A stretch of 58,553 nucleotides of DNA from a virus (lineage: Duplodnaviria > Caudoviricetes): the IMG/VR virus record IMGVR_UViG_3300025000_000115, positions 1 to 58,553 of that record; one strand, written 5' to 3'. Positions 3,394-30,833 of the stretch are shown one piece after another. The number at the start of each line of letters is the position of its first letter. The stretch's first letter is position 1. The notes under the pieces are model-generated. The model did not search any database and was not told the DNA's origin. It worked only from the letters and a program-made list of their open reading frames with translations. The position numbers and the translations under genes are program-made.

Positions 3394-4659
3394 TTATCTT
3401 GTGATCCTGACAGCTAATTGCGCCCGCGTAGTCAGGTAGCCCATCAGAACGTCGAAACGACTGATATACAGGCGGTTGATTATGTCGAAACCACGGATGA
3501 AGGACAGGCTGATGCCGTCAACTGCTTCACGGTAAGCTATATCCATACCTTTGGGAAGGTCGAGGTCGGCAGTGACGAAGGTGAAAGCGTCCTTGTGGTA
3601 AGCGATGTTCTGACCATAGGTGGTGCTTGCTGCGCCGGTCAGGAAGGTAAGTGCTCCACCGTTGGTCGGTGATGCGCTAACATTCTGATAAGCACCGCTC
3701 GTGATGATCTGAGGATTAACCACGATGGGGATCAGGCCGTTGGCGTCTGCGGTATAGAAACCCTGTGTTACCAGCACGCCGTTGGTGAACACTGCCGGTG
3801 TGTAGTAAGCACTGGAGCCGACAGCAACAGCGAACTGCTGGAGCGCACCGTAATTGGTCTTGGCTTCGGGGTGAACTTTGTTGCAACCAGCAGCGGTAAA
3901 CACGGTGCCGACGGTGATGGTCGCACCAGGAGTCCAGCCGGAAGTATTCAGAATGGAGCCTGTCTGATTCAGGCCATTGACGACAACATTGGCGGAACCG
4001 AGCATTGTGCCGTTGGTATGGGTCGGGACCAGCTCGTTCTCGAAGAAGTCGAAGCCTGACAGATGCCCCATTTCACCGTCCAGATACTGACTGGAGATGT
4101 TTTTCGAGGGGTTAAAGTTGTTCTGCAAGCCGTTGACCAAACCTGCTGACGTAACGCTATCAAGCTGAACGAAACGGCTGTTGCCCTTGGGTGCGAGACT
4201 CTGGTTAAGCAGAGTTTTAGCATTCAGGAACGGCAGGATTGTTGCCGGGGTGACGCCCGCTGTGCCAACGAACTGATACACGTCAGAATACAGGCGACTG
4301 AGCACTTCAGACTCGATACTGGCGGAAATGATCGCCATACAGGGGTCGAGGAACCGCTCGCCGAAATCATCGATGTTCATGGTCAGGTCGATACTGTTAA
4401 TGTCAAGATCAGCACCGACTACAGTACTGACAACCAGTGTTTCAGACTGCTCGTTGGTTGCCTGGGGTGAGGCGACAAGGCCGCGACGGGCGACATACTG
4501 GTTGGGCAGGCGGATACGCAAAGACTGACCGATTCTAGCACCGGAGTTGGCAAACTGGTCATCATACTGCCTGGACACAGTGCCGATGAAAGCCGGTTTC
4601 GAGTGTAATATTGCTAATGCCTTGCGCGTTACCTTGATGTCTGTTAAGAAGGTACTCAT
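3394..4659 (-). CDS. Major capsid protein, P22 gp5-like
   Basis: RQYDDQFA..GARIGQSLRIRLP N-terminus, SRFDVLMG C-terminus; position after scaffold. Confidence 0.88.
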   Translation of the reverse strand: MSTFLTDIKVTRKALAILHSKPAFIGTVSRQYDDQFANSGARIGQSLRIRLPNQYVARRGLVASPQATNEQSETLVVSTVVGADLDINSIDLTMNIDDFGERFLDPCMAIISASIESEVLSRLYSDVYQFVGTAGVTPATILPFLNAKTLLNQSLAPKGNSRFVQLDSVTSAGLVNGLQNNFNPSKNISSQYLDGEMGHLSGFDFFENELVPTHTNGTMLGSANVVVNGLNQTGSILNTSGWTPGATITVGTVFTAAGCNKVHPEAKTNYGALQQFAVAVGSSAYYTPAVFTNGVLVTQGFYTADANGLIPIVVNPQIITSGAYQNVSASPTNGGALTFLTGAASTTYGQNIAYHKDAFTFVTADLDLPKGMDIAYREAVDGISLSFIRGFDIINRLYISRFDVLMGYLTTRAQLAVRITR

Positions 4660-5892: not shown

Positions 5893-8116
5893 TTTGTCCT
5901 CCCATTAATTGCTGGTCCGCTGGATGAGCACCCGGTGCCGCGTGAAGCTCACTGAGGATACCCAATACGGCTGACCGCACCTCTTTGATTTGTTCGTCCT
6001 TAGACTCGGCCATTTCTTTTGCCAGTTTGACGAGTGCGACTTTCTGCTCAATCAGACCTTTTTGCTGGCGCACCTCTTCCGTGCGCGACTTCTGGTGCAT
6101 CAACATGACCTGTGGCGGTGGCGGTGGTTGATACGGCTTCTCGCCCTCGTGTAATGCAACCAGACCTGGAGGCATGGTCTTACGTATCCTGGCAGCAAGT
6201 TTTTCACCCTGCTGATTGTCCATGATACCTTCGATAATCAGATCGCCACCAAGTTTACCAATGGACGGTACGCTGTTAATCAGCGACATCATCTGCTGAG
6301 ATGCTTCCTGGCGAGCGGTCGCGTAAGACGGGCCGACTGTGACCACAACTTCATACTTGCCCTCGGCAATGTCATTCAGCTTTGCCATATCGTCGCCGCG
6401 CTGATACATCTCAACGAGTTTCGCCGGATTCATACCGCGATAAGTGGTCGGGAAGCGTTGCAACTTCTCGATTGCCGCTCTGACGGTGGTGTTAATCGGC
6501 ACGACAGTCTCGGTGTCGTCGATGTTACGAATACGAACGTCCCGCTCCGTGTCATACAGGGTCGGAATCATGGAGTTCATAATCTTGGCGCTGTGCTCGA
6601 TACCGCGATTCAGTTTGTAAGCGTATACGTAGCTACCGACATCTGACGGCTTCTGCTTGGCATACACGGCTGCACCGGTTCGTTCAGGACCACCCTCGCC
6701 GATATCGCCGCCGAAAATACCAATAACCCGCCTCAAGTTATCCACGGCTCTTGCTGCCTGGTTGAACAATGCAATAGGTGGGTCGCCGGGTCGAGTGCGT
6801 ATTGGCGGTGGTGCCGGAACGCCTGACTCCACGTCCATGTTATAAAGCAGGAACGGATTGTTCTTGACGTTGGCGTTCTTATAGTCTTCCTCAAATCCTT
6901 CGACTTGCCGCGGTGTCAGCATGTATGGTGCCTTGGGCGACATGGCAATTGCCTCGGCAAGTGCCGTTTCACTGTAGTTCACCATTTTCTGCTGGTCGCG
7001 GGCGTCTTTGATAAGACCCTTGACGTACTGCTTGCCCTCGATATTCTGCGTGACACCGAGGATCTGAACGATGGGTACATACTCGCCGGGGAAATCCTCA
7101 CCATCCAGCAGCTTCTGAGTATGCTCCTTGTCGGTCATGTTCTTCGACTTTGCCGGTCCAAGAATCGCCGTGGCAGTCAGTGTGTAGTATTTAACTTTTT
7201 TAACGTATGTCGCTTTCTCTTTGACTATGGTGGGGGGCAGCAGCCGCCGATGCTGCGGTGCTGCACCAGGTAATACAGGCAAAGGAGCGGGTAACGCCGT
7301 AGGGGAGGGGGCCACGGGTGTTACACCACTCGACTTTGCCTGACTCTCAGCCATCAACTCGTCTGCTTCCTCGCGGGTAATTACTGTGCCGTCTTCCATC
7401 TGGCACATCATTATCTTTTCGGATTTGACGACGAAGTATTCGGCCAGCGTTATGAAATCCTTATCGAAATACAGTTCGTCCTTCATGCCAAGACCGGTTT
7501 TAATTATCTCGGACGGCCAATCGGCATCAGGCCACTCGTCCTCAAATTGATCGCGGGAGTACTTGGTCAGGATGAAACCGAACTTGGCGTCGGCACCGGC
7601 CTCGTCCTTGCGTGTCGGGTCCAGGTAGACGTTGAATGGATTGGGGATCGCTTCAAGGTACATCTCTTGGATAAACGGGTTTTCTTCGGTGTAGCGGGTG
7701 TTGATACGCCACGCGCCATAACCACATGCCACCTGGCTCTTACCGGCAGTCATGTAGATGTCTTCGCCGTTGGAGCGGTATTCGGTATTGGATATGATGC
7801 CGGAACGAATCTTGGCTATGTGCTGAGAGGATTTGTAGTCGCCGGGCTTGACTTTAGCTCGTGCGCGGTTGTGCAGCATTTCGCCGACAACCTGATTGAC
7901 GAAGACAGGGAACAGCGGGACGTTCAGGCAGGGGCGACCTTCCAACTTGCGACGCTTGACTTCCTCGTCATCCCACATGTTATCGCCGTTGAGCATCTTC
8001 AGACAGTTAACGGCGATTTTACGGTTATGATCGTCGGAGTCGATACACTTCTTCAGCTGCTTCTTGGCTTTATCAAGAAACTTCTGGAGTTTTTCGTCGG
8101 CAGTATTTTTAGCCAT
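5870..8116 (-). CDS. Portal protein, P22 gp1-like
   Basis: GRPCLNV, CGYGAWRI, GLIKDARDQQKMVNY, YEVVVTVGPSYATARQEA motifs. Confidence 0.9.
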   Translation of the reverse strand: MAKNTADEKLQKFLDKAKKQLKKCIDSDDHNRKIAVNCLKMLNGDNMWDDEEVKRRKLEGRPCLNVPLFPVFVNQVVGEMLHNRARAKVKPGDYKSSQHIAKIRSGIISNTEYRSNGEDIYMTAGKSQVACGYGAWRINTRYTEENPFIQEMYLEAIPNPFNVYLDPTRKDEAGADAKFGFILTKYSRDQFEDEWPDADWPSEIIKTGLGMKDELYFDKDFITLAEYFVVKSEKIMMCQMEDGTVITREEADELMAESQAKSSGVTPVAPSPTALPAPLPVLPGAAPQHRRLLPPTIVKEKATYVKKVKYYTLTATAILGPAKSKNMTDKEHTQKLLDGEDFPGEYVPIVQILGVTQNIEGKQYVKGLIKDARDQQKMVNYSETALAEAIAMSPKAPYMLTPRQVEGFEEDYKNANVKNNPFLLYNMDVESGVPAPPPIRTRPGDPPIALFNQAARAVDNLRRVIGIFGGDIGEGGPERTGAAVYAKQKPSDVGSYVYAYKLNRGIEHSAKIMNSMIPTLYDTERDVRIRNIDDTETVVPINTTVRAAIEKLQRFPTTYRGMNPAKLVEMYQRGDDMAKLNDIAEGKYEVVVTVGPSYATARQEASQQMMSLINSVPSIGKLGGDLIIEGIMDNQQGEKLAARIRKTMPPGLVALHEGEKPYQPPPPPQVMLMHQKSRTEEVRQQKGLIEQKVALVKLAKEMAESKDEQIKEVRSAVLGILSELHAAPGAHPADQQLMGGQNGNEGQG

Positions 8117-18700: not shown

Positions 18701-18731
18701 CAGCATACAGTAATTTGATTATATGTCAACA
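18701..18731 (-). promoter_or_regulatory. Duplicated sigma70-like promoter, copy A
   Basis: TTGACA-16 nt-TATGCT; 29/31 identical to 22515-22545. Confidence 0.75.
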
Positions 18732-18776
18732 AAATAATCTAAATTATTTTAGCGGGTGGATCGGCTCCAGCCTGGG

Positions 18777-18880
18777 GGCTCCTGGCTCCTGGCTCCTGGC
18801 TCCTGGCTCCTGGCTCCTGGCTCCTGGCTCCTGGCTTTTGGCTCCTGCTCCTGGGGGCGGGCCTGGGGGCTCCTGCTCCT
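18777..18880. repeat. 7-mer tandem array (GGCTCCT)x8 plus degenerate copies
   Basis: Read directly from sequence. Confidence 0.9.
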
Positions 18881-18972: not shown

Positions 18973-19060
18973 TTTGGTCGGATTTTTATAAAATGTGTCA
19001 GGACAATTGGTGAGGGGCTTTGGTCGGATTTTTATAAAATACTGCTGGACAATTGGCGAG
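18973..19060. repeat. Two copies of a 42-bp unit, period 46
   Basis: TTTGGTCGGATTTTTATAAAAT-N6-GGACAATTGG(T/C)GAG at 18973 and 19019. Confidence 0.85.
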
Positions 19061-19062
19061 TC

Positions 19063-19089
19063 GGAGTGCTGTCTATCGGGCAGCACTCC
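19063..19089. terminator. Hairpin after the cassette-containing operon
   Basis: GGAGTGCTG/CAGCACTCC 9-bp stem; no clear U-tract. Confidence 0.45.
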
Positions 19090-19133
19090 TTAGTCCCGTC
19101 AAATGTTTTACATCAGAGCATAGGCATCACCTC

Positions 19134-19448
19134 CTAATCATAGACATATAACGGAGTACGTTTACATGATTTCCTGATTTTCTCCATTGCTGTGCTGAAT
19201 CCGCATTCCTGCCAAAATTGTCCGTCTACGTCGATTTTAAATCGGCCACGCCTGCTTCCTGGATGGAAGAGCAATACATGAGTTTGACCGGAAATCAGAT
19301 TGTCAACTGTGATTCTAATGCAGTCATTCGGGAGTTCAGGTGGATATGTTCGTGGGTTTTCGTCGTGATATTGTTGCCAACGCGCTTCTGCACCACGCCT
19401 GCCACGTTCTGAATTTTTCACCCTGCGTTGTTCACGAGTTAGTATCAT
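19134..19448 (-). CDS. Hypothetical protein (GRRGAEARW motif)
   Basis: ORF track; basic N-terminus. Confidence 0.55.
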   Translation of the reverse strand: MILTREQRRVKNSERGRRGAEARWQQYHDENPRTYPPELPNDCIRITVDNLISGQTHVLLFHPGSRRGRFKIDVDGQFWQECGFSTAMEKIRKSCKRTPLYVYD

Positions 19449-19498
19449 TTTACTATCCGCGCTTCCTTACATAATTAGGTTAATAGCTGGTTATGCGA

Positions 19499-19882
19499 CT
19501 ATACTCGTTTGCCGCCGCGCTTAAATTCCCTGTGCCGGTTCTTCTCGACTTTCGCCAGAATTGCAGCTTTGAGGTCGATCCCCATGCCATGAGAAAGACC
19601 GATCAACCGAATGCCCACGTCTGCAAGTTCTTCATCAAAATTGACACGATCTCCCTTGCGGAACGCTTCCAGTGCTTCGGCTACCTCGGAAACTATCAGC
19701 ATCAGAACAGCAGGGATTTCGTGCTTATCCTCCCAATCCTCAGACGTGGTTACTTTCCAGCCATGCAGGAGCTTGTTGGAATGTATTTCAGCACCAACAT
19801 CGCTTAACCAGTCGCCGCACACAGTCGGGCGGTCACTGGCTCTGATCGAATCTTCTATACCTTCATCCCATGTTGTACTCAT
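19499..19882 (-). CDS. MazG-like all-alpha NTP pyrophosphohydrolase
   Basis: LMLIVSEVAEALEAFRK...EELADVGIR...KVEKNRHR. Confidence 0.85.
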   Translation of the reverse strand: MSTTWDEGIEDSIRASDRPTVCGDWLSDVGAEIHSNKLLHGWKVTTSEDWEDKHEIPAVLMLIVSEVAEALEAFRKGDRVNFDEELADVGIRLIGLSHGMGIDLKAAILAKVEKNRHREFKRGGKRV

Positions 19883-19918
19883 TTCCTTATCCTTTCCGCC
19901 CGCTGGTGGGCTTGATCG

Positions 19919-20419
19919 TTATATTTTCAGAAACGCCACCCAATGAGTTTGGGCTTTTTTACCGCTACGGTGGCCGTATAGCGGCTGATGTGGTGTAAGC
20001 GCCAGAATGTCCCGCAGAGGTATTTCAGCATCACACCATTTAAAAATGAGCGTCCCCATCGGTTTCAGCACTCTGAAGCATTCAGCGAAACCGCCTGAAA
20101 TCATTGCTTGCCATCCGTCACCAAGTTTTCCATATTTCTTTTCCAGAATACCGGTACCAGTGCCGCCCAATCGCTTTCCGGTGTGGTGTGGCGGATCAAA
20201 AACAACGTGGAAAAACGAATCATCGTCAAAGGGTAGCGCCGTAAAATCAGCCTCAATGTCCGGCTTCACAGTTAGAATAGCGCCGTTTTTGTATGCCCTT
20301 CCCGGCTCCACGATAATATCCTCAGTTCTGCAATCTACGAACATGGCTCTTGCGTCCTTTTTATCCATCCACATCATTTTGCAGCTGCAACATGCGTCTA
20401 AAACAGGTGGTAATTGCAA
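19919..20419 (-). CDS. Cassette 1: phage-type class I SAM methyltransferase
   Basis: VLDACCSCKMMW, DFTALPFDDDSFFHVVFDPPH, ECFRVLKP.GTLIFKW. Confidence 0.85.
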   Translation of the reverse strand: MQLPPVLDACCSCKMMWMDKKDARAMFVDCRTEDIIVEPGRAYKNGAILTVKPDIEADFTALPFDDDSFFHVVFDPPHHTGKRLGGTGTGILEKKYGKLGDGWQAMISGGFAECFRVLKPMGTLIFKWCDAEIPLRDILALTPHQPLYGHRSGKKAQTHWVAFLKI

Positions 20420-20435
20420 TTTCGTCTCCTTGAAA

Positions 20436-20493
20436 ATATAACAAAACGCTCGAAGCCGACCGCTTCGCGGCGGTTCATCTCAAGCCGTTATAG
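20436..20493 (+). other. attC-like site 1
   Basis: ATATAAC AAAAC GCTCGAAGCCGACCGC TTC GCGGCGGTTCATC TCAAGCC GTTATAG; from memory, resembles aadA-type attC. Confidence 0.88.
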
Positions 20494-20736
20494 CGAACGC
20501 GATGGCTCGCATTTATCGCTGAATGAATCGGCAAGTTTTTCCAACGTGTCCAAGTCGCTGAACATGATTTTGCGGGATTTCTGATCGTCACCTGACCGAC
20601 AATGATCAACGATTATGCCGTAGAATTTGCCGCTATCTACACCCTGATAGGCATGAACTCGTATCATTGGAGTACAGATATTGCCTAATGTGCCGATTTC
20701 AACCACCTTCAAATCTTCAATTTTCTGAATCATCAT
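20488..20736 (-). CDS. Cassette 2: hypothetical protein (MMIQKIEDL...)
   Basis: GGGGG RBS; stop TAA lies in the GTTA core. Confidence 0.65.
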   Translation of the reverse strand: MMIQKIEDLKVVEIGTLGNICTPMIRVHAYQGVDSGKFYGIIVDHCRSGDDQKSRKIMFSDLDTLEKLADSFSDKCEPSRSL

Positions 20737-20752
20737 TGTCCCCCTGAAATCG

Positions 20753-20815
20753 CTATAACCAGTGCTCGGACGCCGCCCGATAAGGCACGGCGGGTCAAGC
20801 ACATGGTCGTTATAA
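20753..20815 (+). other. attC-like site 2
   Basis: CTATAAC..GTGCTCGGACGCCGCC..GGCGGGTCAAGCAC..GTTATAA. Confidence 0.82.
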
Positions 20816-20830
20816 TTCTTGCCGTAATTG

Positions 20831-21277
20831 TTACACCGAAGTGTCTAACGCTTCCACATCCCAAATTATTTCATGGGTGTCCTCTGGAAATCTCTCCCTC
20901 ACAATTCGCTGGGCAAACTCCAGAGCAAACTTAGGATCAGTAAACCCCAACTTCAGAGCGTCGTAATCTGCTGTCTCTGCGATCTCCTCGTATGGGATCG
21001 TATCATCCCAGTTCAAGCGGAAACCCTTATGCTCTTTTGGGTGATCCCATAGCACAACCTCTCTGAATCCATCCTCCTCTTGAATGAGTAGAGGAATGTC
21101 TTCAGCGGTGAATGAAACATAGTAATGGGTAGCGTTTTCATCTTCGTTTACCCATGTCGTTGCTTTAATAACCACCTTACGTTTGTATGCAGGAAACATT
21201 GCAGAGCGAAGTAAATGCGCCCAGTTGGGATAATTTTTTAAGTTGCCACCGAAAGATGAACCACACGATTTATACAT
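20831..21277 (-). CDS. Cassette 3: hypothetical protein (MYKSCGSSF...)
   Basis: AAGGAGGT RBS. Confidence 0.65.
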   Translation of the reverse strand: MYKSCGSSFGGNLKNYPNWAHLLRSAMFPAYKRKVVIKATTWVNEDENATHYYVSFTAEDIPLLIQEEDGFREVVLWDHPKEHKGFRLNWDDTIPYEEIAETADYDALKLGFTDPKFALEFAQRIVRERFPEDTHEIIWDVEALDTSV

Positions 21278-21314
21278 AATACCTCCTTGTCCTTTGTTCT
21301 GTTGCACCACCGAA

Positions 21315-21375
21315 TTATAACAATTGGCAGGGCGACGACGCGCTTCGCTTGCGTGTCAGCCGAAGCCCGTTATAG
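21315..21375 (+). other. attC-like site 3
   Basis: TTATAAC..GGCAGGGCGACG..CGTGTCAGCC..GTTATAG. Confidence 0.78.
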
Positions 21376-21624
21376 TGCTCTCTGATTCCATGCAGCGATT
21401 GCATTGTTCGCTATTGCAAAAGTCCCTTGCAATTTAGGCTGTACCGGACAGACTCCAAATGTCTCGCAGTTGACACTATGGACGCCAAAATGTTTTCTCA
21501 ACGTCGGTACTAATCCGCACCAGGGACAGGGGAGCAATTCAGCCAAAACAGGAGTGTCTGTTTTTGTGTCTGGACATTCTTCAGAGTGGTCAATATTGCA
21601 GTCGCAACAACTGATTTTCGCCAT
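21370..21624 (-). CDS. Cassette 4: Lar-like (restriction alleviation) zinc-finger protein
   Basis: LLPCPWCG...C....C...AIAAWNQRA signature; AAGGAGG RBS. Confidence 0.7.
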   Translation of the reverse strand: MAKISCCDCNIDHSEECPDTKTDTPVLAELLPCPWCGLVPTLRKHFGVHSVNCETFGVCPVQPKLQGTFAIANNAIAAWNQRAL

Positions 21625-21654
21625 TGAGTTTCCCTCCTTCGTGGCAACCCCGCA

Positions 21655-21716
21655 AGATAACCAGCGGCAGGTGCTTATTTCGCTGCGCTCAAAAGCACAG
21701 CCTTATGACGTTAAAT
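21655..21716 (+). other. attC-like site 4
   Basis: AGATAAC..GGCAGGTGCTTATTT..AAAAGCACAGCC..GTTAAAT. Confidence 0.8.
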
Positions 21717-21875
21717 TGACACTGGATTTCTGACCTCGTTAATACGGTCAAACGCCCACTTGTTTTCCGGCATGTCATGTAATCGAACAAACCCAACTCC
21801 AAAATCACACTGAACAAATTTTCCATCAGTGGATTCTTGTATCAACATTGCAAATTCTTTTTCTGAGATGTTCAT
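21711..21875 (-). CDS. Cassette 5: 54-aa hypothetical protein MNISEKEFAMLIQESTDGKFVQCDFG...
   Basis: Hand translation (not in ORF track); AAGGGG RBS; stop in GTTA core. Confidence 0.6.
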   Translation of the reverse strand: MNISEKEFAMLIQESTDGKFVQCDFGVGFVRLHDMPENKWAFDRINEVRNPVSI

Positions 21876-21891
21876 GATTACCCCTTTCACA

Positions 21892-21954
21892 ATTTAACCA
21901 GATAAATGCACTCTGGCTGCGATTCGCTTGCAGGTGATTTACAAGCCGTTATGT
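21892..21954 (+). other. attC-like site 5
   Basis: ATTTAAC..TAAATGCACTCTG..CAGGTGATTTA..GTTATGT. Confidence 0.8.
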
Positions 21955-22119
21955 TCTGCCTCCCCTGACCGCCAACACGACGGCGTGCCAAGCGTTCTGT
22001 TCTACAGGCGAACAGTGCTTCCACATATCCACCAGTTTTATTCCGTTTCGTGCATGATAATAAGCATTGCACGCCCGCTGTGCATCTTCTATCTGTTGTT
22101 CCAGGTTATCTTGCGGCAT
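21949..22119 (-). CDS. Small hypothetical protein whose TAA stop lies in the last GTT core
   Basis: GGAGG RBS before MPQDNLEQQ. Confidence 0.55.
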   Translation of the reverse strand: MPQDNLEQQIEDAQRACNAYYHARNGIKLVDMWKHCSPVEQNAWHAVVLAVRGGRT

Positions 22120-22300
22120 ACAGAACCACCTCCCTGATGTAGTCGCTGACGGTGCGCCCGTCGCGTTCAGCAGCAAGTGTGATCCTGGCAATCTCATCGT
22201 CATTATACCGCTGCATCAGCCGCCGGTATCTGGTGTCAGGTTTGGTGCTACCGACGTGACGACCTGCTCCTGGTCGAACACCGCCTCGTGGATTATTCAC
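22106..22300 (-). CDS. Small DNA-binding protein (RGG.R.GAGR plus RHH-like)
   Basis: RGGVRPGAGR...AAERDGRTVSDYIREVV. Confidence 0.7.
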   Translation of the reverse strand: MNNPRGGVRPGAGRHVGSTKPDTRYRRLMQRYNDDEIARITLAAERDGRTVSDYIREVVLYAAR

Positions 22301-22514
22301 CTGCCACCTCCCCGACGATTGGTTTCAACTGCACGTACTGCCGCGAAACCGATCAGAAGCATGACCAGTGTACTGCGGGCTTCGACTCTCATACCAACCA
22401 CCACCACAGTGCAGTTAACACTACAACCCACAACGTGACCACTATCCAAACTATTACACCACCGGTCGTTCTCTGGTCTTCTGTCTGACACATATAATTA
22501 ACCCTCCTGATACA

Positions 22515-22545
22515 CAGCATACAGTAATATGATTATTTGTCAACA
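22515..22545 (-). promoter_or_regulatory. Duplicated sigma70-like promoter, copy B (upstream of the cassette operon)
   Basis: TTGACA-16 nt-TATGCT; near-identical to 18701-18731. Confidence 0.75.
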
Positions 22546-23063
22546 GGTTTTATCACCAGATGTCCTTTTTCTTTCATTCGTTCTAATACTGACACGTTGT
22601 CTACTCCCCAAGCAATCAGCATTGACCCGCAACCTGCACCACTGCCGTCTGTAACCCCTAACCCGTCAACAAATTTGATCCTACCTGACAAAAACAAAAT
22701 TGCATCGGCTTTTGCCACATAGTCGTGATACCACTTGCAATCAGTTCGAGCGAAAAGCAATGATATACCGTTACGGTGTTGGTGCATTTTAGCTAACCAA
22801 TGGGTAGTAAATTTACCGTAAGGAGGGTTTAACCACACTCTACCACTCCACTGCTGTAATAACCCATCGTCCTGCTCTGTGTAATATTTCCAGACAGGTA
22901 TCCAAGGTATTCCGCCCACAGGTTGACAGGGATCGAGGTCAAAGATTACACCCATCTCTTCAAATATCGACGGGGGGGTGTACCAATCGACCGACTTATT
23001 TGCAGCACTATCATGTGTAAATCCCGTTGACCGCGTGCTCACCGTGCCACCCCACCGCCCCAC
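22533..23063 (-). CDS. Phage DNA N6-adenine methyltransferase (Dam-like)
   Basis: DWYTP, FDLDPC, VWLNPPYG, ARTD, GRIKF. Confidence 0.88.
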   Translation of the reverse strand: MGRWGGTVSTRSTGFTHDSAANKSVDWYTPPSIFEEMGVIFDLDPCQPVGGIPWIPVWKYYTEQDDGLLQQWSGRVWLNPPYGKFTTHWLAKMHQHRNGISLLFARTDCKWYHDYVAKADAILFLSGRIKFVDGLGVTDGSGAGCGSMLIAWGVDNVSVLERMKEKGHLVIKPVDK

Positions 23064-25360
23064 ACCTGACCGGCGACACTCGCACCGGCCTGTGCGTCCA
23101 GATATCTGCCGACTACATCTATAGGTCTGGTGAGCTGTCTGAGCAAGCTGTCTGACCGCACGTATAATACCGGCTTGCCACCTTCCGGCAATGCGTTATG
23201 CACCCTGCCGCCTGGTAGTGCCGGATGCTGAACGTACCCTAGACCTTCCAGTATCTCCCGACGTTTATTGCGACTGACGGCACGCTTGCCGCCTGCCAGT
23301 AATTTATCAAGCGCCATGCTGCTAATCCATCCGCCCGCGAATCCTGTCGCTCCCTGCTCGACCTGCTCCATGATTTCCTGCTCAACCACGCCCAGGCTGG
23401 CAACCATTGCTTCAGCGGTACTGGAGGTGCGCGGGGCATCGTGACAGTACGTCGCTGGGTTCAGCGCGTTAGGTATGGTGTAAGTCCGTAGGTAGTTATT
23501 CATTATGGCGAATCCTTCAGCACGCAGCCACTCGTACAACTTAGGAAAATAACCTGCCGTTCGCATACCGTCGCGGTCCAGGTCGCCCGCTTCCTGCTGG
23601 CCGGTGTAGAATATAGCATAACGCCTGTCGGTGCCGGTCTTGCGTATAGCGTCCTTGTGGTTGCTGCACAGGATGAAGTTCGCCCTATTGTCGCCGGTCT
23701 GCTGGTTCTGCCCTTTGCCCTGAATCTCTATGCGGTCGTTGGTAATCATCGGCTTCAATGTCTCGATCAGGTCAGCACGGTCAGACGTGTAGACTTCTTC
23801 GATACCGATCAGCAGTTTGCCTTGTAACCACGAATTGAATTTATTACTGAGGTCTTGCGCGTTGGGGAGGTGAGTGTACCGTGAGCCGATAGCGTGTGAG
23901 AGTGCTCGAATTATCATCGACTTGCCGTTACCCTCCATGCCGATCAGCAACGGACACCATTGGAATTTAATGCCAGGATGCTGCACGATTGCCGCCATGT
24001 ATGACAGCATTATTTCGTAGTCTGTCGGGTCAGGCAGCATCAGGTGTAAATGGTTCAGAAATCTCGTCGGGTCGCCCACTTTTATCTCGGTGATGAGCGG
24101 CATGTAGGTGTTGACCAGCATCCTGCCTTCTTCGTAGATCAACGCGCCAGGAGGACATTCAGGCCTGAAGCAACAATCATGCGCCTTTGGGAACGTGAAG
24201 CTCCGCGACCGGGCGAACGCCTCCCAAGCAGATTTAGTGCCCTTGCTGTTACCCTCTTCGATCATGAACTCGTAGCCACCCAGCCAGTTGTCGAACTGTC
24301 CCTGCTCGACTAAATCACCGTCAGGCATGAAAACCTTATGACAGGAGCGCACGTAGACACACCCTTTGAAATACTCCTGCTGACCCTGTATGGTGAGTAT
24401 CTGACCACCGCCCCGGTACTGACCTGTCGGTTCGTCAGGTCCTGGGACGGTGCGCGGTGGATCGGCATTCGGCGTGTCGCCGTAGACAGCCGTGCTGGAG
24501 CGTCCGAATTTGGATATGGTGAGCTGACCGTAAGTCTTACCCTGACCCGCTGAGCGGTCCCATTTGTCGCGCATGAGACCGCTCATACGGAACAGACGGT
24601 CGATGCGGTCACAGTCTCTGCCGGTCCAGAAGCTGAGGTGTGATACCAGAGCGGCGTCTGCTTCGGATTGACCGTCAGCGTCACAGATACCCGCCCACAG
24701 GTCTGATAGTGGAATGGAGTTGCTGAACGGATTGCTGCGGCTGGCAAGCATTCTGTCGATCAGTTCTTGGTCGTCGGTGGGACCACGCCATGCTGGATCA
24801 GGACCGGTGGACCACTCTGACGGAGTGACTGACGCACCGGGTGGGAAGTATGACTGGATGAGCCACTGGAACTGCTGGTCGCATAGGTGAGTCATGGAGC
24901 CGGTTGCCCCGGTGCCGGTCAGGGCTATAAAACGCAATTTTGTGTACGTCTCAATTCCCGCATCATGTACGTCACGGGTGCGGTGTTCCGGTAGTTGACT
25001 GACACTGCCGATGATATGCAGACCCTCGCCGCTGTAACTGACCTCCTGATAAGCACCGGCGAAATATTGACAGAGCTGCGTGGCAAGTGGCGACCAGCTA
25101 CCGTCTTCCAGCTTGCAGCGGTCGAGGTCTATAGCAAACAGCGGGTCGCGTTCGGTCAGGACTATGCCGACACCATGACCGACACCGGTAGCGACTGACA
25201 CCTGTGCGTCGGTATATGACAGCCAGATAGACGGGTCGTGGGCGTCGTGTGCCTTGCCGGTCAGTGGATGAACGGTTATTTTATCAGTTTTACCGGGTCT
25301 GGCGGCTGATGGACGGGTAATGTAAACAACATATTGGTTGCCAGGGTATAACCCGCTCAT
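23039..25360 (-). CDS. NrS-1-type primase-polymerase fused to SF3-like helicase
   Basis: AIDLD, EVSYSGEGLH, SEADAAL..LSFWTG..DRLFRMSGLMRDKW, Walker A GMEGNGKS. Confidence 0.88.
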   Translation of the reverse strand: MSGLYPGNQYVVYITRPSAARPGKTDKITVHPLTGKAHDAHDPSIWLSYTDAQVSVATGVGHGVGIVLTERDPLFAIDLDRCKLEDGSWSPLATQLCQYFAGAYQEVSYSGEGLHIIGSVSQLPEHRTRDVHDAGIETYTKLRFIALTGTGATGSMTHLCDQQFQWLIQSYFPPGASVTPSEWSTGPDPAWRGPTDDQELIDRMLASRSNPFSNSIPLSDLWAGICDADGQSEADAALVSHLSFWTGRDCDRIDRLFRMSGLMRDKWDRSAGQGKTYGQLTISKFGRSSTAVYGDTPNADPPRTVPGPDEPTGQYRGGGQILTIQGQQEYFKGCVYVRSCHKVFMPDGDLVEQGQFDNWLGGYEFMIEEGNSKGTKSAWEAFARSRSFTFPKAHDCCFRPECPPGALIYEEGRMLVNTYMPLITEIKVGDPTRFLNHLHLMLPDPTDYEIMLSYMAAIVQHPGIKFQWCPLLIGMEGNGKSMIIRALSHAIGSRYTHLPNAQDLSNKFNSWLQGKLLIGIEEVYTSDRADLIETLKPMITNDRIEIQGKGQNQQTGDNRANFILCSNHKDAIRKTGTDRRYAIFYTGQQEAGDLDRDGMRTAGYFPKLYEWLRAEGFAIMNNYLRTYTIPNALNPATYCHDAPRTSSTAEAMVASLGVVEQEIMEQVEQGATGFAGGWISSMALDKLLAGGKRAVSRNKRREILEGLGYVQHPALPGGRVHNALPEGGKPVLYVRSDSLLRQLTRPIDVVGRYLDAQAGASVAGQVWGGGVAR

Positions 25361-28803: not shown

Positions 28804-29469
28804 ATGCGGAGAACGGAACTGACAACAACATTTGCAAAATTGAAAGCAACATCAGCCTACGAATCAGGTTACAAAAAACTTGCACAACATCTCGGTGGTA
28901 TCACCAAGTATGGCAAAGACACGCCAATCAATCTACTGACAATACTGGAGTCAAACGGTGTTGACGACATGATGTGGTCGTTACGTGCTGTTGATAATCC
29001 TGACGTTGAACGAATCGCTCGTTTTATTGCCTGCGATTGTGCTGAAGCATCACTCGTTGAGTATGAGGAATACACTCCAGATGACAACAGACCACGTGTA
29101 GCCATTGAGACTGCTCGGCGTTTTGCTGATGGTACAGCAACTCAAGAAGAAATGTCGGCAGCACAGTCGGCAGCACAGTCGGCAGCAGAGTCGGCAGCAT
29201 GGTCGGCAGCACGGTCGGCAGCATGGTCGGCAGCATGGTCGGCAGCACGGTCGGCAGCATGGTCGACAGCACGGTCGGCAGCACGGTCGGCAGCAGAGTC
29301 GGCAGCACGGTCGGCAGCACGGTCGGTAGCAGAGTCGGCAGCACAGTCGGCAGCACAGTCGGTAGCAGAGTCGGCAGCATGGTCGGCAGCATGGTCGGCA
29401 GCACAGTCGGTAGCAGAGTCGGCAGCAGAGTCGGCACAAGCTGAAATAATCAAAAAATATCTGAAATAG
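28804..29469 (+). CDS. Imm5-like domain protein with SAA(W/R/Q/E) tetrapeptide repeat
   Basis: IACDCAE...[17 protein letters not shown]; 12-nt tandem repeat at about 29154-29436. Confidence 0.7.
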
Positions 29470-29560
29470 CAGTAGCTCAATGGATAGAGCACCGCCATCA
29501 GGCGGGATTGGTACGCACGTCGTACTGAAAGGGTTGTGGGTTCGAGTCCCACCTGCTAAA
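29466..29560 (+). tRNA. Atypical tRNA-like element (4-nt anticodon loop, long variable arm, no encoded CCA)
   Basis: TAGCAG/CTGCTA acceptor, TAGCTCAATGGATAGAGCA D-arm, GTGGG TTCGAGT CCCAC T-arm. Confidence 0.7.
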
Positions 29561-29777: not shown

Positions 29778-30833
29778 ATGAGCATCACACTGACAATACC
29801 TGATGACAAGCGGCACATCACTGCTGCTGCTAAATTTTTCGCAGACTTGGCTGACATCGGGCTAATTATCCCGACGTTTGATGGTCAATTTGTAATTACA
29901 CCTGCCGACGTGGAAAAATGTAGCACAATTGCTGGCAAAACAGCAGACGTTATGATTTTTGATGACGTTGAGCACACAGCATCGCCCGTTGACGTTAGTT
30001 CGGCATTCATGGCAACCACAGTGGTCGCGCAGCATCCAACAACCGAATCTCTGCTTACCGGCAACGGAATACCAGAATACGACGGTGTGCCTTTTGACGT
30101 GACGCCACCCACACCAGTACCACCTGCGCCACCCACACCAGTACCACCTGCGCCACCCACACCAGTACCACCTGCGCCACCCGTAACACCACAACCGTTT
30201 GTACCACCCGAACCAACTCGTAATGTCCCTGGTCCCATCGTCAGCGGTGTCAAACTGGATGCAGAAGGCCTGCCGTGGGATCGACGTATTCACGCAAGCA
30301 CCAAGACCCTCCGTCAGTCAGATAACACCTGGAAGCTGATACGCGGTGTGCAGGAAGGATTGGTTGCTAAGGTTAAAGACGAGTTACGAACCGCTATGGG
30401 TCAGGCGGCTCCGGTCGGATCTAACGGCGGTGTAATGGTGCCGACAGAACAATTTAACGCCGGTACGATTCCGCAACATGTAGTCAACCAGATAATCACA
30501 CCGCCAGCACCGCCCACCGGTTTGCCGAATCTCGACAATGACAGTAGTTGGCCTGCACCTCCATCAGTCGTTGAGGACGCCGCACTCGTCACCCCACCGC
30601 CACCAGTGCTTGCTCTCGTCCAGCCACCCGCACCACCTGCTCCACCTGCTGCCGATCCGTTTCCTGAGTTCGTACAATTCTGCACCAGCAATCAGCAATC
30701 TGGCAGACTGGAGTACACAGCCATCGTAAGCACTTGCCAGAAATACGGCATTACTCAACTTCCAATGCTCAACGCTCGTCACGACCTGATACCGACCATT
30801 CGTACTGAGTTGGAGGCTTTATGCAAGTCATAA
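29778..30833 (+). CDS. Proline-rich phage replication-module protein
   Basis: LDAEGLPWDRRIHASTK motif; PPTPVPPA x3. Confidence 0.6.
   Translation: MSITLTIPDDKRHITAAAKFFADLADIGLIIPTFDGQFVITPADVEKCSTIAGKTADVMIFDDVEHTASPVDVSSAFMATTVVAQHPTTESLLTGNGIPEYDGVPFDVTPPTPVPPAPPTPVPPAPPTPVPPAPPVTPQPFVPPEPTRNVPGPIVSGVKLDAEGLPWDRRIHASTKTLRQSDNTWKLIRGVQEGLVAKVKDELRTAMGQAAPVGSNGGVMVPTEQFNAGTIPQHVVNQIITPPAPPTGLPNLDNDSSWPAPPSVVEDAALVTPPPPVLALVQPPAPPAPPAADPFPEFVQFCTSNQQSGRLEYTAIVSTCQKYGITQLPMLNARHDLIPTIRTELEALCKS

Follow-up and report, generated by a model that had tools for sequence, protein, structure and literature searches.

Genes and attC-Like Hairpins in the Accessory Region of a Groundwater Phage

We analyzed the 58,553-base IMG/VR virus record IMGVR_UViG_3300025000_000115, which was taken whole (completeness rating, 97%) and is referred to hereafter as the window, and we focused on a region in which hairpins resembling integron attC sites alternate with short genes. 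The phage was assembled from groundwater, and the array of cassettes sits in its accessory region. The listing of open reading frames (ORFs) of the window places every gene between 19900 and 22550 on the - strand, and the order on that strand is three small ORFs, five cassette ORFs, and then a MazG-like gene and a 104-amino acid (aa) ORF (Table 1). We found five imperfect palindromes of 58–63 nucleotides (nt), named S1 to S5, each bounded by TAAC and GTTA. A preliminary inspection of the letters without database searches (the sequence-only reading) had located five hairpins in this region, and its positions were borne out: all five lie between genes, and a covariance model (CM) of the family, described below, finds exactly these.

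The methyltransferase gene and the gene for a Lar-like restriction-alleviation protein could be assigned to known families, and the 82-, 148-, and 54-aa ORFs had no family matches in Pfam, PHROGs, or PADLOC; for the 148-aa protein, we also found no relatives in viral_contigs. A megablast search against GenBank phages gave no match to the window, and the relatives of its primase are at most 43% identical in IMG/VR, with none at 60% or more among 800 GenBank phage records. The S1–S5 region, with five same-strand attC sites within 1.5 kb in a record that encodes no integron integrase, is a cluster of attC sites lacking an integron integrase (CALIN), a category defined by at least two co-oriented attC sites with no integron integrase nearby (PMC4889954).

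Table 1. Features of the cassette region and its borders, in window coordinates (HMM, hidden Markov model; RBS, ribosome-binding site)
Feature	Position	Strand	Details
attC S1	20436–20493	+	CM 55.4 bits, E 3e-11; nearest of the five to the aadA1 attC
attC S2	20753–20815	+	CM 23.2 bits, E 0.0033; missed by sequence-only HMMs
attC S3	21315–21375	+	CM 37.6 bits; HMM built without window sites, E 2.4e-7
attC S4	21655–21716	+	CM 31.2 bits
attC S5	21892–21954	+	CM 43.3 bits
Candidate long sixth site S0	19802–19924	+	Sure part is the GTTATAT core 19918–19924 only
Cassette gene 1, DNA methyltransferase, 166 aa	19919–20419	-	phrog_954 1.1e-56; PADLOC MTase_II 1.2e-52, orphan MTase 1.4e-39; stop TAA is the TTA of the GTTATAT core 19918–19924
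Cassette gene 2, 82 aa	20488–20736	-	Stop inside S1 GTTA
Cassette gene 3, 148 aa	20831–21277	-	Stop 17 nt past S2 core
Cassette gene 4, Lar-like restriction-alleviation protein, 84 aa	21370–21624	-	PF14354 2.7e-7, 31.2 bits (cut-off 28.6); phrog_599; stop inside S3 GTTA
Cassette gene 5, 54 aa	21711–21875	-	Stop inside S4 GTTA
57-aa ORF upstream of array	21949–22122	-	Stop inside S5 GTTA; no Pfam family above cut-off
64-aa ORF	22106–22300	-	Weak ribbon-helix-helix (NikA-like) match, PF21983 9.1e-5, below cut-off
MazG-like pyrophosphatase gene	19499–19882	-	PF03819 8.3e-6; phrog_3301 7.1e-18; directly downstream of array in gene sense
Sigma-70-like promoter TTGACA-16-TATGCT	22543–22516	-	10/12 consensus matches; head of co-oriented unit
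Second copy of promoter 30-mer	18702–18731	-	28/30 identical to the 30-mer 22516–22545; start of next unit

The Five Hairpins Belong to a Family of attC Sites

Because no Rfam family matched the hairpins and the folds of single sites were unimpressive, we collected relatives. The Rfam searches, one at the gathering thresholds over the whole window and one at E ≤ 10 over 19000–23500, returned no attC-like family, only a tRNA. A pattern search of IMG/VR yielded 48 stretches, 15 of which plainly contain the same kind of hairpin, and a stricter pattern search yielded 35 metagenome contigs. A pattern scan of bacterial genomes gave at least 120 matches, mostly due to chance, and the matches listed included three arrays on contigs of metagenome-assembled genomes (MAGs; L170, L166, and L078). 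In the window itself, a family pattern derived from S1 and S5 matched twice, compared with none expected from 100 shuffles. We trained the CM on 36 sites, none of them from the window. When the CM was run on the 58.5 kb of the window, it returned S1–S5 only, each over its full length and on the + strand, with E values from 3e-11 to 0.0033; the next-best match in the window had an E value of 1.6, and no - strand match was obtained at the five site positions. We note that near-identical copies of S1 are present in other contigs.

The AAC and GTTA boxes are invariant across the 36 training sites, and TAAC and GTTA occur in all five window sites. The outer three positions of the core deviate (for example, ATATAAC) from the strict consensus RYYYAAC ... 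GTTRRRY that is described for attC sites (PMC5027507). A consensus structure was derived from pair frequencies in the alignment. It has five pairs in the R box and nine in the L helix, with a spacer that stays unpaired, and the L helix is interrupted on the AAC arm by columns 19 and 23, which are single unpaired columns, 3 bp apart. RNAalifold run on a MAFFT alignment had predicted no pairs, and the structure was taken from the pair frequencies instead. Over the 16 pairs of the 36-site alignment, 90.4% of cells are paired compared with 76.5% in shuffles, and 76 cells compared with 22 carry changes on both sides, such changes being seen in seven of the nine L-box pairs. The covariation score was 0.359 compared with 0.121 in shuffles, a value that none of 500 shuffles reached. 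When the structure was slid along the alignment, the paired share dropped to 25–43%, a control that is flattered because the structure was derived from the same alignment.

We also folded the five window sites under constraints. On the + strand, single-base bulges appear on the AAC arm of S1 (C and A, or C, G, and A in the register of the sequence-only reading), S2 (G), and S5 (G and T); S2 has unpaired A residues on the right arm as well, and S3 (2x3 and 3x1) and S4 (2x1) have asymmetric internal loops. The claim of the sequence-only reading that all unpaired bases fall on the left arm is thus too simple, in view of the right-arm A residues of S2 and the internal loops of S3 and S4; in the family as a whole, the bulges (columns 19 and 23) are clean. 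A gapless repeat finder missed the hairpins of the window, save for a 10-nt pair within S3.

The + Strand Is Supported as the attC Top Strand

The orientation of the cassettes depends on which strand of the sites is the top strand, and several strand-specific comparisons bear on it. As a reference, we took the attC that separates aadA1 from qacEdelta1 in plasmid R100, read in the coding sense of aadA1. When aligned with the top strand of this site, the + and - strands scored 68 and 34 for S1, 52 and 34 for S3, 38 and 35 for S2, 28 and 26 for S4, and 37 and 31 for S5. HMMs built without window sites, one of which was trained on just 10 sites (adjoining an integrase or in R100), placed S1, S3, S4, and S5 on the + strand and did not detect S2 by sequence alone. 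Five loci with sites of this family encode an integron integrase that scores above the TIGR02249 cut-off of 265 bits (L170, 428.6; L032, 385.8; L225, 349.3; L044, 338.4; and L194, 304.3), and at all five of these loci the + orientation of the model points away from the 5' end of intI, which is the typical layout.

Further, attC strands differ in fold and composition. Extrahelical bases are described as sharing the arm that carries AAC on the top strand, and the bottom strand is described as having the more stable fold and more G:T pairs, with a negative GC skew on the top strand (PMC5027507). Among 76 distinct sites of the family, the strand complementary to the model's + strand has the more stable fold in 68, with a mean advantage of 4.58 kcal/mol, and contains 1.96 more G:T pairs; the + strand has a negative GC skew in 67 of the 76. 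Every strand-specific test agrees, and the assignment of + as the attC top strand of S1–S5 is supported. The sequence-only reading had made the same assignment from the bulges and had named, as the outcome that would overturn it, an attC covariance model calling - the top strand; the CM instead placed all five sites on +, as did the HMMs for four of the five, and the aadA1 alignment, the fold stability, and the GC skew concur. Because + is the top strand, the recombinogenic bottom strand is the - strand, which is the coding strand of all of the cassette genes.

Every Cassette of the Window Is Reversed

The five cassette ORFs all lie on the - strand, and each has an RBS-like purine run ahead of its start and begins 10–25 nt to the left of the AAC box of a site. 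In four of the five (the methyltransferase, 82-aa, Lar-like, and 54-aa ORFs, the 148-aa ORF being the exception), the TAA stop codon is provided by the TTA of the next GTTA core to the left; this agreed in full with what the sequence-only reading had drawn from the ORF listing. Dividing the array between G and TT of each right-hand box gives the units 19919–20487, 20488–20809, 20810–21369, 21370–21710, and 21711–21948, each of which holds one antisense ORF; apart from the unit of the 148-aa ORF, the stop codon makes up the first three bases of the unit. The GTTATAT core at 19918–19924 forms the left boundary of the array. In the sense of the genes, a unit reads attC, short leader with RBS, ORF, and TAA within the GTTA core of the next site. 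The canonical layout, in which the ORF lies on the top strand upstream of its own attC, is found in none of the five. The window cassettes are the mirror image of bacterial cassettes, in which the ORF precedes the attC on the top strand.

The statement that only the + polarity yields five complete cassettes holds if 19918–19924 is a lone core; a long sixth site there, S0, is a candidate. In a constrained fold, the stem of S0 shows three single-base bulges on the AAC arm, 4 nt apart, and the start of the MazG-like gene would sit in its loop. We did not accept S0 as a sixth site, given a fold z score of -1.2 to -1.3, no CM match, and a shape that is suggestive at most.

Reversal Recurs in Unrelated Viral Contigs

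Beyond the window, 53 other sources gave 92 CM matches, and within any one source all sites lie on the same strand. The contigs with this attC family are unrelated to the window phage, with one small protein common to one locus. We scored ORFs of at least 40 aa at each site, counting as sense a top-strand ORF that stops at the AAC box and as antisense a bottom-strand ORF that stops at the GTTA box, a test that is symmetric because both boxes offer TAA. The scoring covered 93 distinct site contexts, the window included, and the counts were regrouped by hand. The 35 sites of IMG/VR loci comprise 24 antisense-only, two sense-only, five with both, and four with neither. For the 11 sites on bacterial MAG contigs among the matches listed, the corresponding counts are one, four, three, and three, and the difference in ORF orientation between viral and MAG sites is significant (Fisher p = 0.002). 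Metagenome contigs of unknown origin contributed 42 sites (antisense-only, 19; sense-only, four; both, eight; none, 11), and the window itself contributed five (antisense-only, three; both, one; none, one).

RBS-like words follow the same division. Within 25 nt to the left of the site, a - strand RBS-like word is found at 24 of the 35 viral sites and at none of the 11 MAG sites; to the right of the site, a + strand RBS-like word is found at none of the 35 and at three of the 11. An earlier count made on HMM matches in 53 contexts had given 37 antisense and 10 sense, with a left-hand RBS word in 31 of 53 and a right-hand one in two of 51. We conclude that the reversal recurs within a phage-associated attC family and is not a peculiarity of this window.

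We also looked at individual phages and genes. Polaribacter phage P12002L (L228) has one CM match (E 0.019, + strand, 30005–30059), which lies between two - strand methyltransferase genes; P12002L is a published, cultured virulent phage with attC sites tested by others. Among 19 methyltransferase loci, a site of the family at E < 0.01 was found only in L172, as a partial match directly upstream of the gene. A hairpin downstream in L172 was considered as an attC and rejected, as it is not a clean site. At L172:2940-3010, the gene for the methyltransferase, which is 72% identical to that of the window, starts at an ATG that forms part of the GTTATG box of the site upstream, and no RBS separates the two.

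Some Phage Loci Carry Their Own Integron Integrase

Two of the five viral records that were searched whole encode an integron integrase. One locus, L032, lies within the 41,929-base record of a tailed phage (G001) with a 127-nt direct terminal repeat. G001 encodes a terminase large subunit, portal, head protease, tape measure, tail fiber, serine integrase, and reverse transcriptase, with nearly all genes on one strand. The order of transcription is primase, cassette ORFs with five CM matches, three small ORFs, intI, and then the packaging genes; one of the CM matches, at 3459–3572, is weak (29.1 bits), and a Lar-like ORF and an N6/N4-type methyltransferase are among the cassettes. The reverse transcriptase (phrog_1423, 8.2e-101) and the serine integrase (L229:16166-17413 and L229:2476-3939) thus occur in the same phage as the complete reversed integron.

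A provirus record (L044) and a metagenome contig (L194) show the same order as L032, that is, ORFs, attC sites, and then intI, all in one direction. At all three loci, intI runs against the attC polarity, with its 5' end toward the array. The five integrases are 37–44% identical to each other (37–49% over all pairs compared) and do not group by layout. The sequence-only reading had suggested a class of inverted cassettes, and these phage-borne complete integrons, together with the unrelated phage contigs, bear this out.

A Repeated Promoter-Like Sequence Brackets the Cassette Genes

The TTGACA-16-TATGCT promoter that the sequence-only reading had seen upstream of the array on the - strand held up on inspection (Table 1). 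It overlaps the end of a Dam-like gene, and an RBS and a small ORF come next. No recurrence of the promoter 30-mer is expected by chance. Because the two copies bound the unit at both ends, the stretch from 22545 to ~18900 looks like one operon, a reading that comes from the promoter sequences. The 30-nt repeat is, in addition, a candidate phage-specific promoter motif. On the - strand, S1 is the only one of the five sites to score as terminator-like (a hairpin with a T-rich tail).

Flanks of Similar Site Bodies in Different Contigs

An integrase crossover between G and TT of the right-hand box would make the body of a site travel with its left flank. We compared the flanks of site bodies that are at least 85% alike in different contigs. 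In 148–149 pairs, neither flank is common, as would be expected of different cassettes within one attC family. Four to five pairs (L219/L205, L211/L206, L195/L215, L017/L194, and, weakly, L194/L210) have the body and the left flank in common, and no pair has the body and the right flank in common, which fits the + polarity. These counts are small and mixed and were not used to decide polarity.

A search for sequencing runs with this stretch gave four runs from one groundwater study, which are possibly the source of the DNA, and no RNA run. Assembly contigs from these groundwater runs fork at S1 and S5, with loose ends at 20437, 20442, 20490, and 21895, and the summed depth goes up over S1; other DNA in the groundwater samples therefore carries near-identical sites in other contexts.

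Two further observations were made in the contigs compared here. L199 (site at 583–639) and L216 (site at 402–462) are 78% alike in the left flank and 95% alike in the right flank over 60 nt, and the body comes from a different sub-family, swapped as a module. In L011, the methyltransferase gene (93.5% identical to that of L032) is interrupted at ~7020–7150 by an insertion of ~120 nt, the ends of which are inverted repeats and which resembles a miniature transposable element.

Other Features of the Window

A run of short GC-rich direct repeats with GAGCCAG-like units occupies 18770–18870, and a 14-nt repeat is present twice at 19001–19060, all within the interval from the 104-aa ORF to the second promoter copy. 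The tRNA match lies at 29466–29560 on the + strand and measures 95 nt against a 71-position model (41.3 bits); this length is unusual, and the tRNA may carry an insertion or an intron.

Weighing the Interpretations

Overall, we consider it likely that the window carries an integrase-less array of five attC sites in a phage, with mirror-image cassettes in a phage operon, and that this build recurs in unrelated phages, some of which have their own integrase. The cassette genes would be read as part of a phage operon starting at the promoter at 22545–22516 and not from an integron Pc promoter, and capture by a host in the usual orientation would leave them facing Pc backwards. Cassette exchange could be carried out by an integrase acting in trans, supplied by a co-infecting phage, a prophage, or a host integron. 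The cargo may serve against host restriction.

Several observations weigh against this interpretation. For the sites themselves, S2 is the weakest of the five in the window, the CM is home-made and Rfam has no matching family, and unconstrained folds of single sites as DNA give nonsignificant z scores (+0.15 to -2.46), with a minimum-energy structure that is often not the attC fold. The AT skew is not negative, and the first bulged base on the bottom strand would be C, and not the usual G, in 22 of the 36 training sites. The bacterial comparison set is small (11 sites on three contigs, among the matches listed), and the metagenome contigs are of unknown origin. As to the integrase, the 58.5-kb record has no TIGR02249 match and no tblastn match with an IntI, and no excision joints were found in the reads and contigs of four groundwater sequencing runs from one study. 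Further, the flanks do not always behave as integrase exchange would have it. Equal left flanks adjoin different bodies in L032:2972/L011:7615 (where the left flank is a methyltransferase gene, 93.5% identical), L205/L032:4380, L044/L195, and L197/L009; both flanks are alike around different bodies in L199:714/L216:838; and a Logan unitig agrees with the window across the start of the methyltransferase gene as far as 20442, where it passes into a different body. L033:7160-7219 and L034:12580-12639 are nonfolding chimeras, in which left and right arms from different attC types are joined in the conserved loop TTCGCTNCGCTC and which are probably dead sites because the arms are not complementary; the left half of the L033:7160 chimera, together with 20 nt of left flank (the leader), matches S4 of the window. 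These mixed flank cases indicate that modular replacement of site bodies also takes place by some route besides integrase exchange.

These flank cases lend themselves to an account that we consider unlikely, in which the sites, although derived from attC, have lost their role for an integron integrase in phages and are kept as conserved intergenic modules, be it linkers at which phage genes re-assort through homologous or illegitimate recombination or hairpins in the mRNA (leaky terminators, stabilizers, or spacers between genes). Bodies at least 85% alike between genes unrelated on both sides (the 148–149 contig pairs), the body replaced between conserved flanks in L199:714 and L216:838, and chimeras broken in the conserved loop would all suit such modules. 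The mRNA-sense strand is the one that folds better, by 4.58 kcal/mol on average, S1 scores as terminator-like on -, and most phage contigs with sites show no integrase in the stretch examined, with two of five whole records having one. However, S1 is the only one of the five window sites to look like a terminator, and unrelated cassettes sharing attC families are normal in bacterial integrons too (PMC4889954). The sites keep conserved TAAC and GTTA boxes, a spacer without pairing, and bulges at regular intervals, all of which an integrase reads and an RNA hairpin or a linker would not need. Moreover, in L032, L044, and L194, arrays of this kind have a bona fide integron integrase next to them, arranged as in a standard integron, and IntI1 has recombined attC sites from phages (PMC9892861).

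The mirror-image arrangement itself would disappear if - were the top strand, so that each ORF had its own attC in conventional orientation and the likeness of + to attC top strands arose from near-palindromy. Read in the sense of the genes, each ORF indeed precedes a site, the first box of which holds its stop, a feature that many ordinary cassettes show too, and some homology breaks at the box adjoining the start of the following gene (the L011/L032 methyltransferase and the Logan unitig at 20442). But neither the CM nor the HMMs match - at any of the five sites, S1 scores 68 against 34 on the aadA1 top strand, the bulges lie on the AAC arm of +, the asymmetries in stability and GC skew favor + as top, and body and right flank are common to no pair. 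The L032, L044, and L194 arrays would also have to run in the direction of intI and have attI at the opposite end, a layout not described in the accessible parts of PMC4889954 and PMC3607928. We hold a conventional orientation to be very improbable. Less probable still is that the array is a relic of chance, left by a single event of illegitimate recombination that brought in part of a bacterial integron, and that its antisense ORFs are coincidental or spurious. The window lacks an integrase, as such a relic might, and has no close phage relatives for comparison, as judged from its primase in IMG/VR and GenBank phages; but the - strand ORFs include family members (methyltransferase and Lar-like), every ORF comes with an RBS, the stop codons match the cores, and the same build is seen at dozens of sites in unrelated viral contigs.

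With an attC array of mirror-image cassettes as the preferred reading, a wider proposal can be made, which we put forward tentatively, as a possibility that falls somewhat short of an even chance. Phages may run their own version of the integron, with a standard platform and reversed cassettes, in which the array and intI form one operon running toward the integrase; such cassettes would make up a separate pool, rich in anti-restriction functions and silent in a host integron, and infection would expose the bottom strand and drive shuffling. The reversed build would put the bottom strand on the coding, non-template strand, which, for genes co-oriented with replication, is the lagging-strand template, so that transcription and replication during infection would expose it and drive the shuffling of cassettes. 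In the working model of the integron, the selectivity for the bottom strand inserts promoterless cassettes in such a way that Pc reads them. This rule would be inverted for every cassette in this attC family, including those of complete integrons in tailed phages. If the sites are active, phages would have a private, recombinase-driven means of swapping accessory genes, with methyltransferases and Lar-like proteins as recurrent cargo; cassettes could be expressed independently of Pc and on the schedule of the phage, and expression of the integrase may be linked to read-through from the array. Active sites would also provide a natural mirror-image system in which to test directly how the direction of transcription or replication is linked to attC folding. 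Further, annotation pipelines that assign cassette ORFs by the attC strand may mis-annotate phage arrays.

Comparison with Known Systems

CALINs in virulent and temperate phages have already been reported, with methyltransferases as recurrent cargo (Qi et al. 2023, PMC9892861), and IntI1 recombined five of six phage attC sites tested there, the bottom strand better than the top (PMC9892861). The window array resembles those phage CALINs in having two or more attC sites, no nearby integrase, and methyltransferase cargo. It differs in that those arrays are described as like typical bacterial arrays, and the accessible part of that paper makes no mention of antisense ORFs, whereas the reversal here is systematic and extends to phage-borne integrons.

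As to the sites, the likeness to the aadA1 attC of the R100 class 1 integron comprises a length of ~60 nt, the TAAC and GTTA boxes, a bulge on the AAC arm, a TTCG apex, and CAAGC before the last box, and S1 can be aligned to it over its full length. In contrast, aadA1 and its attC share a strand, with the gene upstream and transcribed from Pc, whereas the window gene that adjoins the AAC box starts there on the other strand.

With respect to layout, an "inverted integron-integrase group" has been described apart from the typical arrangement (PMC4889954). As in the Treponema-type inverted integrons, integrase and cassette genes of the phage loci are transcribed the same way (PMC3607928 and PMC4889954). 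In the Treponema type, it is intI that is transcribed toward attI (PMC3607928), whereas in L032, L044, and L194, intI diverges from the attC polarity as is typical, and the flipped part is the cassette ORFs, which run toward the 5' end of intI. In the typical integron, by comparison, the genes diverge from intI.

In the literature searched, which left most subscription journals outside, we found nothing on phage cassettes antisense to the attC polarity and nothing on this platform layout. Clusters of attC sites, and even integrons, in phages are already in print, and the systematic reversal is apparently new, in that we found no paper on it. Chromosomal integrons contain individual reverse-oriented cassettes (for example, toxin-antitoxin cassettes), which have their own promoters and are exceptions within sense-oriented arrays. 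The window cassettes are like these in that the ORF is antisense to the array and its expression would be independent of Pc. They differ in that every ORF of the window array is antisense and appears to be read from an outside promoter, whereas the chromosomal cassettes carry promoters of their own.

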